A stretch of 62,231 bases of DNA from a virus. Under the pieces are notes generated by a model. That model was not told the origin of the DNA and did no database searches. It was given only the letters and a program-made list of their open reading frames with translations. Where the stretch lies: positions 1 to 62,231 of IMG/VR virus record IMGVR_UViG_3300010348_000458; one strand, written 5' to 3'. The translations under genes were made by a program, and so were the position numbers. The stretch's first letter is position 1. Each line of letters begins with the position of its first letter. This document shows positions 11,921 through 27,769 of this stretch, piece by piece.

Positions 11921-11948
11921 AGTATAGCGGATTCCCGCGTTAATACAA
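11921..11948 (-). promoter_or_regulatory. Module A minus-strand promoter TTGTAT-N16-TATACT
   Basis: The reverse complement reads cacTTGTATtaacgcgggaatccgcTATACT. The same architecture occurs at 12533-12560 and 13082-13109. Confidence 0.65.
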
Positions 11949-11985
11949 GTGACATTTATCACGTCTTTTTTATGACATATGTTAC
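11949..11985. promoter_or_regulatory. Two operator-like palindromes (gtgacatttatcac, atgacatatgttac) between divergent promoters
   Basis: Each site is adjacent to one -35 hexamer. The arrangement is conserved in modules B and C. Confidence 0.6.
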
Positions 11986-12014
11986 TTGACAAGCATCACC
12001 GGTTCCGCGATAAT
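11986..12014 (+). promoter_or_regulatory. Module A plus-strand promoter TTGACA-N17-GATAAT
   Basis: Consensus -35, 17-nt spacer, 5/6 match at -10. Points away from all nearby CDSs. Confidence 0.65.
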
Positions 12015-12040
12015 CCTGCCATTGACCAGGTAAGTGAGTA

Positions 12041-12104
12041 GAACGAATGTTCGACGTGGGGACGTAGAACGAATGTTCGACGTGGGAATGTAGAACAAAT
12101 GTTC
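12041..12104. repeat. Three GAAC-N4-GTTC hairpin units at 26-bp spacing
   Basis: Boxes at 12041-12052, 12067-12078 and 12093-12104. The first two lie within cgtagaacgaatgttcgacgtggg repeats. Confidence 0.9.
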
Positions 12105-12112
12105 TATTCCGG

Positions 12113-12145
12113 GACAAAAGAAAACCCCGCCGGGTTAAGGCGGGG
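12113..12145 (-). terminator. Intrinsic terminator of 12165-12479
   Basis: CCCCGCC gggttaa GGCGGGG. On the minus strand it is followed by TTTTCTTTTG. Confidence 0.75.
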
Positions 12146-12164
12146 GGGAGGTGGGGGAGGTATA

Positions 12165-12479
12165 TTACTGGCGCCAGCACTCCTCAGGTAAATCGTCTAG
12201 GGTCGTGGTCATCACCACGAGCTCAATGATACCCTGCCGAATCTCGTCTAGGGTGCTGTTAGAGGTATCCCCGTAATTGCCCTCCTCGACGCGCTCGATG
12301 AGGATTTCGTCATCGCTGAGCGGTGTTAGGCTGGAACACCAGCCGAATTCTCCAGTCTCAGTGTTGTAGTATACAATTGGGGTTCCCATGACGCGGGAAC
12401 CGCCGTGGTATTGATTGACATATGCATCTGCGACTACTTTGGCGAACTCCTTGATGATGTAAGTGTGAGCAGTGTTCAT
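12165..12479 (-). CDS. Hypothetical protein, paralog of 10421-10744
   Basis: ATG 12479 preferred over TTG 12485. See the paralog entry for shared sequence. Confidence 0.65.
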   Translation of the reverse strand: MNTAHTYIIKEFAKVVADAYVNQYHGGSRVMGTPIVYYNTETGEFGWCSSLTPLSDDEILIERVEEGNYGDTSNSTLDEIRQGIIELVVMTTTLDDLPEECWRQ

Positions 12480-12532
12480 TTTCAAAATCCTTTCTTTTGA
12501 TTTGATTTGGTTTGGTTTGAGTTGATAGTCAC

Positions 12533-12560
12533 AGTATAGCGGATTCCCGCGTTAATACAA
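12533..12560 (-). promoter_or_regulatory. Module B minus-strand promoter TTGTAT-N16-TATACT
   Basis: Same sequence as module A. Operator gtgacatttgtcac at 12561-12574. Confidence 0.6.
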
Positions 12561-12597
12561 GTGACATTTGTCACAAAAAGAATATGACATTTGCCAC

Positions 12598-12626
12598 TTG
12601 ACAGACTTCTCCGGTTCTGCGATAGT
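12598..12626 (+). promoter_or_regulatory. Module B plus-strand promoter TTGACA-N17-GATAGT
   Basis: Hexamers and spacer read directly. Operator atgacatttgccac at 12584-12597. Confidence 0.6.
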
Positions 12627-12655
12627 CCCCCCATTGACCGGATAACGGAAATATA

Positions 12656-12693
12656 GAACGAACGTTCGACGTGGGAATGTAGAACGTTCGTTC
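12656..12693. repeat. Two GAAC-N4-GTTC boxes at 26-bp spacing
   Basis: gaacgaacgttc at 12656-12667 and gaacgttcgttc at 12682-12693. Confidence 0.85.
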
Positions 12694-12768
12694 TGGTTTA
12701 CCTGGAAGGTTCGCGCAGCGAAAAACTTTCCGCGAAAAACTTTCCTAAAAACTTGCTAAAAACAAAAA

Positions 12769-12800
12769 CCCTGCCACAAGCGTGGCAGGGTTTCTTGGGA
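12769..12800. terminator. Bidirectional intrinsic terminator
   Basis: CCCTGCCAC aagc GTGGCAGGG, with TTTCTT on the plus strand and TTTTTGTTTTT on the minus strand. Confidence 0.75.
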
Positions 12801-12818
12801 GAGGCGCGGCGGTTATTC

Positions 12819-13052
12819 TTAGGATGCCACACGAACCGGGATGCCCTCGATGCCGACGTATAGCCAGCCGATGAATATCCCCCGGCGCTGGCGGCGGACT
12901 CCACAATTGTGGTCGTCCCATTCCGCTCGCGAGCGGTATGGACGCCACCAGGCTTTATCCAATGCAAGCACAATCAGCAGGGGTTTAATCCCCCACCGAA
13001 TCTGCTGGTCAAATGAAAAGATGTTTGGGATTCGCAGGATGAACCTCTTCAT
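12819..13052 (-). CDS. Hypothetical protein
   Basis: 77 aa with an AAAGGAG RBS, placed directly after the module C minus promoter. Confidence 0.45.
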   Translation of the reverse strand: MKRFILRIPNIFSFDQQIRWGIKPLLIVLALDKAWWRPYRSRAEWDDHNCGVRRQRRGIFIGWLYVGIEGIPVRVAS

Positions 13053-13081
13053 TTTCTATCTCCTTTTTTGTTGATAGTCAC

Positions 13082-13109
13082 AGTATAGCGGATTCCCGCA
13101 TTAATACAA
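13082..13109 (-). promoter_or_regulatory. Module C minus-strand promoter TTGTAT-N16-TATACT
   Basis: As in modules A and B. Operator at 13110-13123. Confidence 0.6.
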
Positions 13110-13146
13110 GTGACATTTATCACGTCTTTTTTATGACATATGTTAC

Positions 13147-13175
13147 TTGACAAGCATCACCGGTTCCGCGATAAT
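13147..13175 (+). promoter_or_regulatory. Module C plus-strand promoter TTGACA-N17-GATAAT
   Basis: Identical to module A. GAAC boxes follow at 13204-13215 and 13238-13249. Confidence 0.6.
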
Positions 13176-13273
13176 CCTGCCATTGACCAGAGGTAAGTGA
13201 GTAGAACGAATGTTCGACGTGGGGACGTGGGAATGTAGAACGAATGTTCTGGCTTACCTGGAAGGTTCGCGCA

Positions 13274-16209: not shown

Positions 16210-16345
16210 ATTCCCCACGCCCCGCCGACCACCGGAGCCGGAGCCGGAGCCGGTCAGGTCGGCAACCAGGCGGAGCCGGAGGGAACCCCCCCACCCATGG
16301 CGCTAAAACAACGCTAAAACAATGCAAAAACAACGCAAAAACAAT

Positions 16346-16377
16346 AAAAAAGGCGGGGTTCCCAACGGAACCCCGCC
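16346..16377 (-). terminator. Intrinsic terminator
   Basis: 11-bp stem GGCGGGGTTCC/GGAACCCCGCC, followed by T6 on the minus strand. Confidence 0.8.
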
Positions 16378-16383
16378 CCATGG

Positions 16384-16493
16384 CGCTAAAACAACGCTAA
16401 AACAACGCAAAAACAACGCAAAAACAACGCTAAAACAACGCTAAAACAACGCTAAAACAACGCTAAAACAACGCAAAAACAACGCTAAAACGC
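16384..16493. repeat. 11-bp tandem repeat x10 (cgc[t/a]aaaacaa), phased A-tracts
   Basis: Counted directly. A 4-unit copy lies at about 16303-16345. Both copies are preceded by ccatgg. Confidence 0.9.
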
Positions 16494-16509
16494 TGGATAG
16501 TGACATTTA

Positions 16510-20910: not shown

Positions 20911-22200
20911 CGTCAACTACCACCCGCTAAAGCGGGTGGCTTGTCCCTGACGCCATCGCAGAAGTAGCGGCGGTGGTCGAGACGTTTGGCAGGTTGACTA
21001 CTGCCCGGCGAGCGATATTGCTCGCCGCGATGTGATCGGCAAATCCAGCAAATCCGCACGACACACAGGAGAACTGACTTTGAGTAGGGCGATTGCGTTT
21101 GTCTACGTGACCACAGGCGGGACAGGTGCGGGACGTATTACGAGGGTCTACAAAGACCACCGGAACACCCACGCGCTGCGCCTTGTAGGAGACAAACGAC
21201 CGGAGTTGGAAGAAAGACCAACTATGCAGCGTGGCGCGCTGGCGGCGACGAACCGTAACCCGCTGGCGAATGCCTTCGAGGTCTTCGAGAGCAATCGCCC
21301 GCTTCGTGTCTTTCGCCTTCGTCACAAGCTGCTTGGAGATAACGTGATTCACATTTCTGGCAAAGCGAGACTCTTTGCCGGACAACTGACGCAGCCGACG
21401 CCGCGCCGACTTGGTGCCTTTGCGCTGCAACTTGGCGCGCAGGCGGCGGTGACGTTGCCTGACGCTATTGACCTCACTGGACGAATGCACTTCACCGTCC
21501 GAGTCAACGGCGATATTCGTCACGCCCAAGTCAACGCCCAACGCGCCCTCAACGTCAATCGGTTCCGGTTCCTGCACTTCGCAGGTGGCAGACAGGAAGA
21601 ACGCGCCGCGGAACGTGACCAGATCGGTTTCGCCCTGGCGAGATTCCAGAAGCGCGCGCTGCCTCTCTCCACAGACGAACGGGATGTGCAAGCGACCCTC
21701 TACCGTCCAGATCGAGACAGTAGACTTGGCAAGCTGCCAGGAAAGGATACGGTCATCGTAGGCAATGCTCCCTGTGGACCGGAACATGCGCTTACTCTGA
21801 CGGTCGAGCTTGTAGGCATCGGCAACCTTGCCAATCACCCGCACGGCGACCTGAGCCGAAAGCCCGAATTGCGACCGGATAGCCTGATAGCACAGGTGAT
21901 GCAGGTCGTACTGCCGGAAGGTCTTGGTTTCCCACGCCGTATCACTCACAAACCGACAGGCGGCGTTGGCCTGTTCCAACGTCCGCTTGAGCGCGTCGGC
22001 TTGTTCGGGAGTAGGGAGCAGTTTGACTTGAGCTATCAGCTTCATGCCAATAATTATAGCACAAACACCCTAAAACTTCAAGTAGGGAAATCAGACCTTC
22101 TGGCATTCTTCGATGTATCGATTGTACCACGAAAGGAGGGAAGCGGCTTCCTCCACCCTTTGAAAGGGGGGGTTTCCGCCGCCGAACCTCATGAAAACCT
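20911..22200 (-). mobile_element. tnpB-only IS200/IS605-family element (approximate ends)
   Basis: Subterminal hairpins at both ends (CCACCCGC taaa GCGGGTGG at 20920-20939; GGAGGGAAGCGGCTTCCTCC and CCCTTTgAAAGGG at about 22135-22170). No tnpA. Confidence 0.6.
20927..22045 (-). CDS. tnpB: TnpB (RuvC-like RNA-guided nuclease family)
   Basis: 372 aa. N-terminal KLLPTPEQ...L. RuvC D (GVDLGVTNIAV), E (AIALEDLEGI), zinc ribbon CPACGH..CVSCG, D (FADHIAASNIARRA). Confidence 0.9.
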   Translation of the reverse strand: MKLIAQVKLLPTPEQADALKRTLEQANAACRFVSDTAWETKTFRQYDLHHLCYQAIRSQFGLSAQVAVRVIGKVADAYKLDRQSKRMFRSTGSIAYDDRILSWQLAKSTVSIWTVEGRLHIPFVCGERQRALLESRQGETDLVTFRGAFFLSATCEVQEPEPIDVEGALGVDLGVTNIAVDSDGEVHSSSEVNSVRQRHRRLRAKLQRKGTKSARRRLRQLSGKESRFARNVNHVISKQLVTKAKDTKRAIALEDLEGIRQRVTVRRRQRATLHSWSFFQLRSFVSYKAQRVGVPVVFVDPRNTSRTCPACGHVDKRNRPTQSQFSCVSCGFAGFADHIAASNIARRAVVNLPNVSTTAATSAMASGTSHPL

Positions 22201-24435: not shown

Positions 24436-24628
24436 CTAATCGTATCCCAACAGCACCAGGATTCCCATGATAATCGTCATGGCTATCGCAAAAATCCACC
24501 ATCCCATGATCCCTCATTTCTACGGCTTTTCGCCGTTGCTGAAACTTGATTTCCAACAACCCCACCCGCACCGCTTCCGGCACGGGCGGGGTTTCTGGAC
24601 GGCTAATCAACACCGCTTTTTTCGTCAT
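24416..24628 (-). CDS. Hypothetical protein
   Basis: 70 aa ORF overlapping its neighbours. Confidence 0.4.
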   Translation of the reverse strand: MTKKAVLISRPETPPVPEAVRVGLLEIKFQQRRKAVEMRDHGMVDFCDSHDDYHGNPGAVGIRLDGTKSR

Positions 24629-24945
24629 GCCACCTTACCAAGTCTCTTGAAGTATTCCTGCCAAATGTGACGGCGGAATATTTTGGACTTGCAAAAATCA
24701 TGCTTGCCGTTTAGAAGGGCGCGGGTTAATGCAATCTTGCGCCCGCTCGCCTTGCTCCAAACTCCATGCCGCAAGTCGTTTGGGTGAACAATACACGACC
24801 CCTTCGCTATCTCAACCCATCTGTTGTTAATCTGGATTGAGATGACAGCGACAGTTGCGGGGCGCGGTTCCGGTTCATCGCAAAGCAACCTCACATGGAC
24901 AAAATTTACCTCCACCGGAACTCCCAGGTAATTGGTCGTAAACAT
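24625..24945 (-). CDS. Hypothetical protein
   Basis: 106 aa, ATGA-type coupling. Confidence 0.5.
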   Translation of the reverse strand: MFTTNYLGVPVEVNFVHVRLLCDEPEPRPATVAVISIQINNRWVEIAKGSCIVHPNDLRHGVWSKASGRKIALTRALLNGKHDFCKSKIFRRHIWQEYFKRLGKVA

Positions 24946-25607
24946 TACGCCTCCAACCTTACTACGTTCCGATATGGCTTTCCAGCGGAATTCATTTTAT
25001 CGCTGTTGCGCCAATAGGCGTTGAAACTTACCGGATACTCCGTTGCAACCATGAAGTGTTCCGGAGTCCATCCACCAATCGCGCCAAAAAGATTTGCCAA
25101 CGAATCCGGCGTCATCACACTGGACAAGTCGGCGTATTTCCGACCCGCCCCAAAAAACTCCACCTTGCTCTTTCCGTCCGTCCTGGGCGTTACCAGGACT
25201 TTGACAACCCGAATAACGCCACCTTCGGGCTGGTTCTCGTTCTCCTGAACGGGTTGAGAGGGCGCAGGTGCAGGTGCAGGTGCAGCGGCGGAATTGGTTA
25301 CATTGGGGTTCGGTTGATTCGTCACTGGCGCGGGGCGATTCGGGGTTTGCGGCGACAGCGGGTTAAACGGTTTGAGGTGATAAACCTCATTGGCATACCG
25401 CATCCCGGCAATGATTTGGTCAATCGCTCCCTGAACCGTCTCTGCACGCGCAGTGACGTTGATTTTGAACGCCTCCCGGCGTTCCGTTGCAGAGTCTGTA
25501 ACCGTCCCCCACAACTCCATAAAAGCCACGCCTCCCGCCTCGGGGAGGTAGCTCGGAGTTTCAATGGACTCAACGGACTCAATCGGTGTTTCTTTTTCTT
25601 CTGACAT
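24945..25607 (-). CDS. Hypothetical protein with a central Pro/Ala-rich linker
   Basis: 220 aa with an AAAGGAAC RBS. Two domains joined by PAPVTNQPNPNV..APAPAPAP. Confidence 0.6.
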   Translation of the reverse strand: MSEEKETPIESVESIETPSYLPEAGGVAFMELWGTVTDSATERREAFKINVTARAETVQGAIDQIIAGMRYANEVYHLKPFNPLSPQTPNRPAPVTNQPNPNVTNSAAAPAPAPAPSQPVQENENQPEGGVIRVVKVLVTPRTDGKSKVEFFGAGRKYADLSSVMTPDSLANLFGAIGGWTPEHFMVATEYPVSFNAYWRNSDKMNSAGKPYRNVVRLEA

Positions 25608-25638
25608 TTTTTAGTTCCTTTCTTTTGAATTGGTTTGA

Positions 25639-25767
25639 GGTGAACTACCACCCGCTGAAGCGGGTGGCTTCCTGGTTCGATGAGCGAGTAATCCCACTCT
25701 CCCCAGACGTATGCGTTCCTGGCGTTCCACCAGTACGTTCGGCACAGCCGAAAATCTCAATATTTAT
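25639..25767 (-). ncRNA. Orphan copy of the tnpB-2 3' end / right end (omega-RNA-like scaffold)
   Basis: 129 bp matching 60439-60567 with 1 mismatch, in reverse orientation. Homology stops exactly at the element end ...GGTAGTTCACC. Confidence 0.6.
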
Positions 25768-25780
25768 TTGAGATAAATTG

Positions 25781-25824
25781 ATTTTAGCACTATCCCGCTA
25801 AAATTACAATATGACATTTGTCAC
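25781..25824 (-). promoter_or_regulatory. Promoter TTGTAA-N17-TAAAAT with upstream operator gtgacaaatgtcat
   Basis: Hexamers at 25804-25809 and 25781-25786. Operator at 25811-25824. The predicted start lies about 7 nt upstream of the orphan scaffold. Confidence 0.55.
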
Positions 25825-25827
25825 TAT

Positions 25828-26823
25828 TTAACGGTTCCATCTGGCATCCGCACCCGCCTGGCGGGTTTCCATTTCGTCCAGCCGGTTGTAAATCGGGTCA
25901 AACTTAACCCAATAATGGACATTATCCATTCCCATCTTTTGTTTAAGGATAGATATTACCATCTGGTTGCTTCCAACAACATCCCGCCCCAAAAACTTTT
26001 CCCCCTCATTCCGATATTTGCGGGGACGCACAAGGCTAAACACCTTGTCGCTGGATTGTTCACAATTGGATGTCCATTGACCATCATCCAGACCGGGAAC
26101 GGGTTCATCCCTTGCATCAACTTCCCGTCGCGCTTGTACCCCCACCACAAACGGACATCCAAACGCAAGCGCACCATCTTTCAGGCGGTCTAAAATATCA
26201 CTGGTTGCAATCGCCTTGCTTTCAACCCTTCCCTCCGCTGGAATGCGTTGCAGGTAATCTATAAAGACCATGTCAATAATCTTGCCATAGTCATCCTCGA
26301 TTTTCCGTAATGCCTCCGCCAACGTTGTAACATTCATGGCTGGACGCTTCTTCCTGCGTTCCAGGCTGTGACCAATAAACCATAACGGTTGTAAGATTCG
26401 GTCAACCCCGGAACGAAGAATCCGGCTCCATTCATCGTCCGAAATCTCACCACGCGCCATGTTGGTAACGGACAGTTGTTCGTCTGCGGCAACCATGAAG
26501 CTGTGCAATTCCTCAACAGATTGCTCCCATGTCGCATATACGACAATATGATTTTCGGCGTTGGCGCGCTCCGAAATTTGATTCGCCCACCAGCGCGCCC
26601 ACCGCATCATAAACCCGGTCTTTCCACCGCCGGGTCGTGCAATAATGCTAATCAGTTCACCCGGCAACAACGGCAACATGGTTTTGTCGAGCGTTGGTAG
26701 CCCCAACGGTATCGCCAATGCGGTTTTGTCACGCTTCCCTTTCAGGTAGGCGGTTCCAGCGTTGGATGCCTGTTCCGGCGTGAAAATCAAATCTTCCGCG
26801 TTCGTATCAGCCAGCATAATCAT
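25828..26823 (-). CDS. DnaB-like replicative helicase (RecA-fold C-terminal domain)
   Basis: Walker A ARPGGGKTGF and Walker B MVFIDYLQ. 331 aa. Confidence 0.8.
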   Translation of the reverse strand: MIMLADTNAEDLIFTPEQASNAGTAYLKGKRDKTALAIPLGLPTLDKTMLPLLPGELISIIARPGGGKTGFMMRWARWWANQISERANAENHIVVYATWEQSVEELHSFMVAADEQLSVTNMARGEISDDEWSRILRSGVDRILQPLWFIGHSLERRKKRPAMNVTTLAEALRKIEDDYGKIIDMVFIDYLQRIPAEGRVESKAIATSDILDRLKDGALAFGCPFVVGVQARREVDARDEPVPGLDDGQWTSNCEQSSDKVFSLVRPRKYRNEGEKFLGRDVVGSNQMVISILKQKMGMDNVHYWVKFDPIYNRLDEMETRQAGADARWNR

Positions 26824-27769
26824 CTCCCTCGCTTTCCGTAAAATCCGTGGTGCTGATTCTTTTCGCAGAAGTCCTGTTCACGGCGCGCATATCAAGAATC
26901 GTTTTTGTCAACGAACGCGGACTTCCGATTGTAATTCCAGATTGGCGAAGTTTGCCAACCGCCGCTTGAATTTCCTCAACCTTTACCTGCTGGGTTTGCC
27001 ACTCCAAATAAAACTTTGTCCAGGCAACCCTTTCTGATGGCAACGACTCCCTTCCCGTTGCCTTCACAAACGCATTGTGTAATCCCCATAATGACTCATA
27101 TAGCCAGGATGGGTTGTAATCCGACACGCCGCTCGCCCGGCGTTCCATCTCCCCCTTTCGTATAGCCTCCAAAACGCGCGGGTTTTTCACCTCCCTGCCC
27201 ATTCCGATAATTTCCCATGTCGAAACTGGTGGATTTTGCGATTCATCACCGACAAGGAAATCAGTTTCTTCTGCCGGTTCATCTTCATTTTCAACGATTG
27301 GCGTATTTGTTGTAATCTCTGTTGTAATATCTGTTAATGATTTCGCGGGAATCGCGATATCGTTTTCGCGATAATCGCGAAAACGATTTTGCGAAATTGC
27401 AATTATCCTATTCGCGATTTCTTCCAAATTGGGTTTGTAATGGGTTGTCGGGTTCCCGTTCGCCTTCTTCACCTTCGTCTCCAACAATCCCATGACGACC
27501 AACCGCTTGACGGCGCTTCGGAATTTATAATCACCCATGGCAACTTCATCCGCAAACTCTGCGGTCGTTTTCCAGAACCATCCATCTTCAGCCCTGGACC
27601 GGCTGCTCCAATAGATGCATTGAGATATAATCAATGCCGTTTCAATATCCCCGGTCATTTCAATGAATATCCTTGGGACTACGAGTAAGTTTAACTGTCC
27701 AGATACAGCTTCAATCAACCCAAAAATTTCTTTTTGATTATCCACTCTTCCTCCGTTTTGATGGTGCAA
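26807..27769 (-). CDS. Putative replication initiator / replisome organiser (winged-helix N-terminus)
   Basis: 320 aa, between primase and helicase. N-terminal wHTH-like segment. Contains a TCGCGA-rich palindrome cluster. Confidence 0.45.
   Translation of the reverse strand: MHHQNGGRVDNQKEIFGLIEAVSGQLNLLVVPRIFIEMTGDIETALIISQCIYWSSRSRAEDGWFWKTTAEFADEVAMGDYKFRSAVKRLVVMGLLETKVKKANGNPTTHYKPNLEEIANRIIAISQNRFRDYRENDIAIPAKSLTDITTEITTNTPIVENEDEPAEETDFLVGDESQNPPVSTWEIIGMGREVKNPRVLEAIRKGEMERRASGVSDYNPSWLYESLWGLHNAFVKATGRESLPSERVAWTKFYLEWQTQQVKVEEIQAAVGKLRQSGITIGSPRSLTKTILDMRAVNRTSAKRISTTDFTESEGDDYAG
27353..27385. repeat. 33-bp sequence shared with 60567-60599 (1 mismatch), including a 25-bp palindrome
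   Basis: cgcgatatcgttttcgcgat[a/t]atcgcgaaaacg. The arms cgttttcgcgat / atcgcgaaaacg are perfect. Confidence 0.9.

Follow-up and report, generated by a model that had tools for sequence, protein, structure and literature searches.

An orphan omega-RNA scaffold in the leader of a phage gene: a candidate scar of an aborted homing-type copy of a tnpB insertion sequence

Standalone omega-RNAs have been described, and we know of no role that has been established for them. Homing by TnpB of the "cut-and-copy" kind has been shown in laboratory constructs, and structures exist of ISDra2 TnpB with its omega-RNA (PDB entries 8H1J and 8EXA). For ISDra2 TnpB a 116-nt scaffold suffices, the 5' part of the RNA being dispensable (PMC10097598). 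Standalone omega-RNAs (Altae-Tran et al. 2021) are reported, in the summary given in PMC10691335, to be functional in trans with compatible effectors, and the concept of a trans-acting standalone omega-RNA is thus already known. Palindrome-associated transposable elements (PATEs) are protein-less derivatives of IS200/IS605 elements that often encode an omega-RNA (Meers et al. 2023, PMC10055086), and phage homing endonucleases are accompanied by co-conversion of flanking markers (PMC13565253). Here we describe an orphan omega-RNA scaffold in a phage-like genome, which we read, with a probability of roughly 0.55, as the scar of an aborted homing-type copy that left behind a probably functional guide module.

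The stretch of DNA analysed (62,231 nt, hereafter the window) was assembled as a circle and represents a complete phage-like genome, to which the GenBank phages include no close relative. Positions 1–127 recur exactly at 62105–62231, and this terminal direct repeat of 127 nt fits a circular assembly of a 62,104-bp genome. A blastn search in distant mode of 50,697 GenBank phages with positions 24600–27000 as query gave no match, no Rfam family matched anywhere in the window at gathering thresholds, and a search for tRNA and tmRNA genes returned none. Short tandem repeat arrays with periods of 15, 13 and 11 nt are found at 10087–10266, 11128–11400 and 16288–16504, in a region dense with GTGACAWWTGTCA operators and with duplicated blocks of ~120–160 nt (11909–13190; 10566–10728 and 12304–12466). 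Segments of ~100–210 nt with 63–95% identity to each other, in both orientations (3011–3221, 5231–5430, 8083–8282, 8703–8913 and 9377–9494), are shared by the ORFs 2462–3169, 5274–8117, 8126–8746 and 8755–9495 and look like paralogous gene copies.

The window carries a full-length, IS1341-type element with tnpB as its only gene (the tnpB-2 element, 1299 bp, 59268–60566, plus strand). Its ends were fixed by comparison with two contigs, L002 and L003, which encode 92%-identical homologues of TnpB-2 on short MAG contigs, and with the sibling phages L090 and L101. Homology begins directly after TTTAT, the junction TTTAT/AGGAAAT being found both in the window and in L002 (a slash marks the junction here and below), and ends at ...GGTAGTTCAC, window position 60566, beyond which the three right flanks are unrelated. 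The comparison with L002 places the putative TAM of the left end, TTTAT, at 59263–59267 on the plus strand. The element, which has its own promoter, comprises a left-end hairpin (59288–59307), the tnpB gene (59371–60561) and the omega-RNA scaffold (~60454–60566), all on the plus strand, and is followed by its own guide position CGCGATATCGTTTTCGCGAT at 60567–60586. The ORF 59371–60561 matches the Pfam families OrfB_IS605, Cas12f1-like_TNB and HTH_OrfB_IS605, and the closest natural homologue of TnpB-2 with a solved structure is ISDra2 TnpB (E 6.5e-90). The motifs GIDVGLK, AEDLNVKGM and HDRDKNAAINI align with the RuvC motifs of that protein, which suggests that TnpB-2 is catalytically intact; unlike the TldR proteins, in which RuvC is inactivated, it has D, E and D motifs that line up with the catalytic ones of the active homologue.

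The guide of tnpB-2 recurs in full (20/20) at 27353–27372, inside the O-like initiator gene of the phage, with the 5' flank GGAAT, not TTTAT. This gene (ORF 26807–27769, minus strand) encodes a lambda-O-like/DnaD-like replication initiator and contains an origin-like block of short repeats (27307–27393) together with the palindrome CGTTTTCGCGATAATCGCGAAAACG, which is conserved in the related contigs L001 and L087. In L090 and L101 the same guide 20-mer occurs twice in tandem, each time after ATTAT, and a second origin-like block lies at 2513–2640 between an HTH gene and a PAPS-reductase-like gene. It is this second block that the tnpB-2 element adjoins in the window (60567–60599), where 94 nt of the sibling sequence are missing. 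A second and different tnpB gene, tnpB-1 (372 aa; gene 20927–22045, minus strand), lies in an element region at 20912–22100. The right end of tnpB-1, ...AAGCCACCCGCTTTAGCGGGTGGTAGTTGAC, has the TnpA hairpin of tnpB-2 over its last ~33 nt, the scaffold upstream is unrelated, and the flank of its left end is suggestive of a TTCAT target that precedes a hairpin by 19 nt.

Read as its reverse complement, the region 25639–25767 equals 60439–60567 at 128 of 129 positions, far beyond chance, and identity collapses directly outside the copy on both sides; the pair was also scored as inverted repeat I3. The near-identical repeat of the tnpB-2 tail with a single mismatch, which had been reported in an initial annotation of this DNA, is therefore real. 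Its extent requires a small correction: the homology to the element terminus ends one base earlier than had been proposed, because L002 and L003 stop at 60566 and the following C belongs to the flank, shared by chance. The orphan fragment is thus 128 nt long (25640–25767, minus strand), is identical at 127 of 128 positions to 60439–60566 and corresponds to the 3' terminus of the tnpB-2 insertion sequence. Within it are a complete omega-RNA scaffold and the TnpA-type hairpin CCACCCGCTTCAGCGGGTGG of the right end (RE), which is sub-terminal and is followed by the end at GTTCAC exactly as in tnpB-2, L002 and L003. Only the last 41 codons of tnpB are retained, so that no tnpB open reading frame is present, and there is no left end: a search of the window with our covariance model R1, described below, places the left-end hairpin only at 59287–59306, in the full-length tnpB-2 element, and between TTTAT and the orphan fragment lies CTCAA with no left-end sequence. 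The single mismatch, C to T, falls within a stem, where U-G replaces a C-G pair; L002 has this T as a natural variant, with A as its partner. No effector or transposase gene adjoins the fragment, the neighbours being a DnaB-like helicase gene and the 220-aa gene discussed below, which agrees with the description of the scaffold as stand-alone. An assembly artefact was ruled out by the clean, inverted 128-nt insert and the 5-nt duplication between correctly ordered flanks.

Model R1 was built on the last 167 nt of tnpB-2, L002 and L003 and was searched against 80 loci of TnpB-2 relatives, of which more than 60 match it over its full length, exactly at the tnpB 3' end; the orphan fragment scores 163 bits. 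In the alignment, which was itself fitted to the model, standard pairs fill 92.8% of cells as against 38–48% with slid partners, and compensatory changes are seen in 38 of 38 pairs. All seven helices with covariation support lie at 60454–60559, within the retained 128 nt, and the conserved helices span 113 nt, so that the assignment of this segment as the tnpB-2 omega-RNA scaffold can be upheld. Between L003 and tnpB-2, wobble-spaced substitutions end at ~60451 and the sequence downstream is constrained at the nucleotide level. As in ISDra2-type systems, a conserved multi-stem scaffold overlaps the 3' end of tnpB. A search for a pseudoknot partner of the nearly invariant AGUUCA tail gave GAAC in the loop of helix 3 as the best candidate (83% paired, with weak covariation). 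The predicted RNA is strongly structured (z = -4.3), and an Rfam search of the tnpB-2 3' region returned chance-level matches only, with E of 0.6 or higher. The locus thus combines a distinct guide with a complete scaffold that has its match at an effector locus of this genome. Use of the orphan RNA by TnpB-1 was rejected, as the 3' region of tnpB-1 shares with it only the last ~33 nt, which form the TnpA hairpin.

The insert lies in the 5' leader of the 220-aa gene (24945–25607, minus strand), a gene of unknown function in the replication module which has no Pfam or PHROG match and which is syntenic, after the DnaB-like helicase gene, in all relatives. A promoter and operator precede the insert on the minus strand (25781–25824). 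The promoter TTGTAA-N17-TAAAAT, sigma-70-like with a TG extension, was recovered by a consensus scan at 25809–25781 (-35 TTGTAA at 25804–25809, -10 TAAAAT at 25781–25786), and the operator GTGACAAATGTCA (25812–25824) is a member of a palindromic family repeated across the genome, with 26 matches against 0.33 expected. A transcription start ~7 nt upstream of the scaffold, as first suggested, is a reasonable prediction. The promoter had also been regarded as the scaffold's own, and here the relatives speak otherwise. It belongs to the 220-aa gene, because siblings without the insert have the same promoter and operator in the same place: the promoter region is identical in sequence in L082 and L083, and in L084 the promoter hexamers and the operator are identical. 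Relatives found through the 220-aa protein likewise have promoter and operator equally spaced from the helicase stop codon, with the insert absent. On this comparison the promoter is ancestral to the 220-aa gene and was not brought in by the scaffold.

Downstream of the scaffold, the guide-position 20-mer CTCAAACCAATTCAAAAGAA (25620–25639, minus strand) runs up to the Shine-Dalgarno sequence AGGAAC of the 220-aa gene, in agreement with the initial annotation, and in the predicted fold of the leader the Shine-Dalgarno sequence and the start codon are largely unpaired. An intrinsic terminator was rejected, there being no U-tract after the right-end hairpin. A guide position that ends directly at the Shine-Dalgarno sequence and an RNA of such pronounced structure could suggest that the scaffold has been co-opted as a leader that acts in cis on the translation or stability of the mRNA of the 220-aa gene, for example through binding of TnpB-2 beside the ribosome-binding site, and a co-opted structured 5' UTR had indeed been put forward. 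We consider this very improbable, however, since the insert is absent from the sibling and cousin phages recovered and conserved in no relative, matches no Rfam family and has just the structure of the transposon's omega-RNA, and since the predicted fold does not mask the Shine-Dalgarno sequence.

With the end of the element at GTTCAC, the guide starts one base before the version given previously and reads CTCAAACCAATTCAAA. As had been observed, it differs from that of tnpB-2 (CTCAAACC... as compared to CGCGATAT...). Upstream of the insert, the motif TTTAT (25773–25777, minus strand), a putative TAM and TnpA target motif, is contiguous with target nucleotides 1–5; its assignment as a TAM rests on four junctions, of which three have TTTAT and one, that of a mini-element in L090, has TATAT. 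The proposed search of competitor genomes for the guide 20-mer next to a plausible TAM was fruitful, as TTTAT followed by a 20/20 match to the guide is present in three sibling phage contigs (L082, L083 and L084). In these the site is intact and reads ...TTGTAATTTTAGCGGGATAGTGCTAAAAT-CAATTTAT-CTCAAACCAATTCAAAAGAAAGGAAC...ATG, that is, TAAAAT-CAATTTAT/CTCAAACC. In a more distant clade (L001, L087 and L088) the corresponding sequence is ...TACAAT-AATAGAAA-TCCAAACATACC..., with no TAM and a diverged target. The insert is missing from all of the relatives recovered, namely L082–L084, L001 and L085–L089, of which L085, L086 and L089 cover the leader end only. The guide sequence is just what flanked the original site of insertion, a canonical homing target, and has no acquired specificity, so that the notion of a guide that retargets TnpB is not supported. 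No second target of the orphan guide was found in the window, the next best match having two mismatches. In the window allele itself the guide matches at positions 1–6 only after the retained TAM and TAM-proximal mismatches follow; this allele should be immune because the insert splits the target.

Compared with L083, the window shows a clean 133-nt indel that consists of a 5-nt duplication, CTCAA, and the 128-nt fragment, and the blast segments on either side of the indel overlap by 6 nt, CTCAAA. The upstream copy of CTCAA (25768–25772, minus strand) duplicates target nucleotides 1–5, where the siblings have a single CTCAAACC after TTTAT; the duplication grows to 6 nt (CTCAAA) when the fragment's first base is included. 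The allele, on the minus strand, thus reads -10 TAAAAT, CAA, TTTAT, CTCAA, 128 nt of the element 3' end and CTCAAACCAATTC.... The scar junction is TTTATCTCAA/ATAAATATTG, as against AATCAATTTAT/AGGAAATGCC expected for a full-length fill at this site. The left junction is therefore of the empty type, with TAM and target nucleotides 1–5 contiguous; on the right, RE/CTCAAACC is a filled-type junction, such as TnpA would make after TTTAT. The right junction is canonical in this sense, yet the fragment is flanked by a 5–6-nt duplication, CTCAA(A). When viral contigs were scanned for exact matches, none was obtained to the right-end 29-mer or to the junction of right end and target, and a filled full-length allele at this site was not recovered; one match to the predicted full-fill junction (promoter, TAM and left end) falls within a gene of L102, an AT-rich phage that is unrelated, and was attributed to chance. 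The orphan 5' boundary (60438/60439; 25767/25768) coincides exactly with an opposite-strand TTTAT of tnpB-2 (gcg/ATAAAT), and two overlapping hairpins, ATTTAT-CTCAA-ATAAAT and ATCTCAA-ATAAATA-TTGAGAT, form at the orphan junction; none of the mechanisms considered accounts for this arrangement.

The flanking markers were examined at those sites only that differ between L083 and L084, with positions given relative to the insertion point. From -750 to -53 the window is of L083 type at 36 of 38 sites, from +26 to +109 it is of L084 type (10 of 11 sites), and from +112 to +250 all 15 sites are again of L083 type. The L084-type patch of ~85 nt thus abuts the insert on the side of the right end only, the left flank being of L083 type. 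Such a tract beside the right end would be the expected trace of one-sided repair synthesis templated by a filled donor. The region of the 220-aa gene is mosaic regardless, with the type switching every 100–150 nt, and the patch could be a coincidence.

A copy of the element that had once filled the site TTTAT/CTCAAACC in full and then lost its left end and most of tnpB through an internal deletion, with neither an empty allele nor a cut by TnpB involved, would account for the canonical TnpA-type right junction after TTTAT, and internal deletions of the tnpB-2 element do occur, as the L090 mini-element illustrates. A deletion cannot, however, place CTCAA between TTTAT and position 60439, given that the left end begins with AGGAAAT and that 60439 is preceded by GCCGCG, and it leaves the donor-type marker tract on the right side alone unexplained; this course of events is improbable. 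The earlier view of the locus as a decayed IS copy was accordingly right as to its origin, but the architecture is that of an incomplete copy into an empty site and not that of a simple deletion. Several other origins were tried and set aside. None of the TnpA routes considered (a pseudo-left-end, one-ended strand exchange, and the same-strand TTTAT at 60438/60439 with the leader) reproduces the junctions, and no path of template switching through the junction hairpins yields the observed sequence. Reverse transcription of the omega-RNA is not favoured, as the fragment ends exactly at the DNA cleavage site and has no guide from the source locus.

As judged from its junctions, the allele resembles the product of recombination between an empty and a filled site, illegitimately joined 128 nt inside the element. 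In the aborted homing-type copy that we favour, an allele with an intact TTTAT/CTCAAACC would have suffered a break within the target or immediately 3' of it, as would result from cleavage by TnpB, and been repaired from a co-resident allele filled with the element at that site. Synthesis would have proceeded from the right flank into the right end, covering 128 nt of the element before it halted, and its product would have been joined to a left end that still bore the TAM and CTCAA(A). ISDra2-type TnpB cuts 15–21 bp from the TAM. Since only 5–6 nt of the target remain to the left of the fragment in the window allele, additional trimming of that end must be assumed. The leader transcript may then supply a second guide RNA that is loaded in trans by TnpB-2, and TnpB-2 with this guide would be expected to cut the uninterrupted TTTAT-CTCAAACCAATTCAAA of sibling phages, with conversion of the siblings to the insert allele, or harm to a competitor, as the outcome. 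Scaffold, promoter, intact nuclease and natural target, all that a trans-acting guide would need, are present.

A strong rival to this reading, to which we give a substantial but lesser weight, is that the fragment is inert: a recent, neutral IS remnant that is transcribed only as part of the leader and has no effect on TnpB-2, on the phage or on its relatives. The insert is seen in one genome only, with three close siblings (L082–L084) all empty and the distant clade also without it, so that there is no sign of the insert spreading or of selection. If the event was recent, an identity of 127/128 to tnpB-2 requires no selection and fits a very recent, still-neutral scar equally well; with the Shine-Dalgarno sequence and start codon largely unpaired the gene need not be disturbed, and other decay products of the element are known, namely the L090 mini-element and a 5'-truncated copy in L047. 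Against inertness, a full scaffold, a promoter, an intact nuclease and a perfect target flanked by a TAM in co-circulating relatives are all present, and in view of the trans activity ascribed to standalone omega-RNAs in the summary of PMC10691335, inactivity would itself need explaining. A more far-reaching reading, which is possible but doubtful, takes the 133-nt cassette as a non-coding hitch-hiker that is driven by a phage promoter and, in co-infecting siblings, uses TnpB-2 in trans to cleave the empty allele. If this were true, the cassette would be copied into siblings as a protein-less gene drive, or the siblings would be excluded, and in its junctions we would see the first footprint left in nature by homing that TnpB initiated between phage genomes.

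The tnpB-2 element appears dynamic in this phage lineage, where it behaves as an active, decaying family. L090 and L101 are 97% identical to the window around tnpB-2, and neither has the element at the tnpB-2 position; L090 carries instead, ~150 bp away, an inverted PATE-like mini-element (2125–2356 of IMGVR_UViG_3300025748_000049, at a site that corresponds to window 59114/59115) made up of ~137 nt of the left end and the last 98 nt of the right end. Its left end, with the tnpB promoter and ~10 first codons, is joined at CCGCA/CGTACTGG and helix 1 of the scaffold is missing, and its own-strand flank, GCTTATAT/.../TTGTCAAC, has two extra bases compared with the empty site. The copy in L047 (660–873; Sebaldella sp. 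MAG) is a 5'-truncated fragment of the tnpB 3' region with the terminal sequence GTAGTTCAC (also written ...GGTGGGTAGTTCAC); an unrelated short ORF is fused to it, and a full-length tnpB follows ~600 nt downstream. One phage population thus offers a natural allelic series of empty site, partial fill, full-length source and PATE-like derivative, in which the partial fill retains exactly the guide-RNA module. Should the locus be a repair scar, it would constitute field evidence for TnpB-guided breaks and recombinational copying between phage genomes, and it would illustrate one route to orphan guide modules, a step from one-guide nucleases toward multi-guide systems. One protein, one RNA and two phage alleles would suffice for a direct test.

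Among the systems described, the standalone omega-RNAs of OMEGA systems, in so far as they are characterised in the summary cited at the outset, are like the orphan in that a scaffold without an adjacent effector or transposase and with a different guide is found together with a compatible effector in the same genome. In that account they are "evidently mobilized", whereas the orphan copy, having no left end, is not movable by TnpA; in contrast to them it sits in the leader of a phage gene under the promoter of that gene, and its junctions point to an origin by repair and not by transposition. Like a PATE, the orphan is non-coding, keeps the right end and the omega-RNA and would depend on TnpB in trans, but PATEs keep both ends and the orphan has the right end only, which sets it apart from that class. 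The omega-RNA is derived, as in ISDra2, from the tnpB 3' end and the right end, with a scaffold of ~116 nt there and helices that span 113 nt here, whereas the putative TAM is TTTAT here and TTGAT in ISDra2 and the scaffolds are unrelated at the nucleotide level. The relationship to restorative homing by TnpB (Meers et al. 2023) lies in a guide that equals the insertion-site flank, a target that is the empty site recognised by its TAM, and a filled allele that is immune, and the short donor-type marker tract beside the orphan insert resembles the co-conversion associated with homing endonucleases. Different from known homing, the nuclease gene is not part of the copied segment, which is truncated, and homing between phages is here deduced from allele structure and not observed. 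What this locus adds to the known systems is a scaffold with no left end, its context in a phage leader, a natural allelic series and the architecture of a repair scar.
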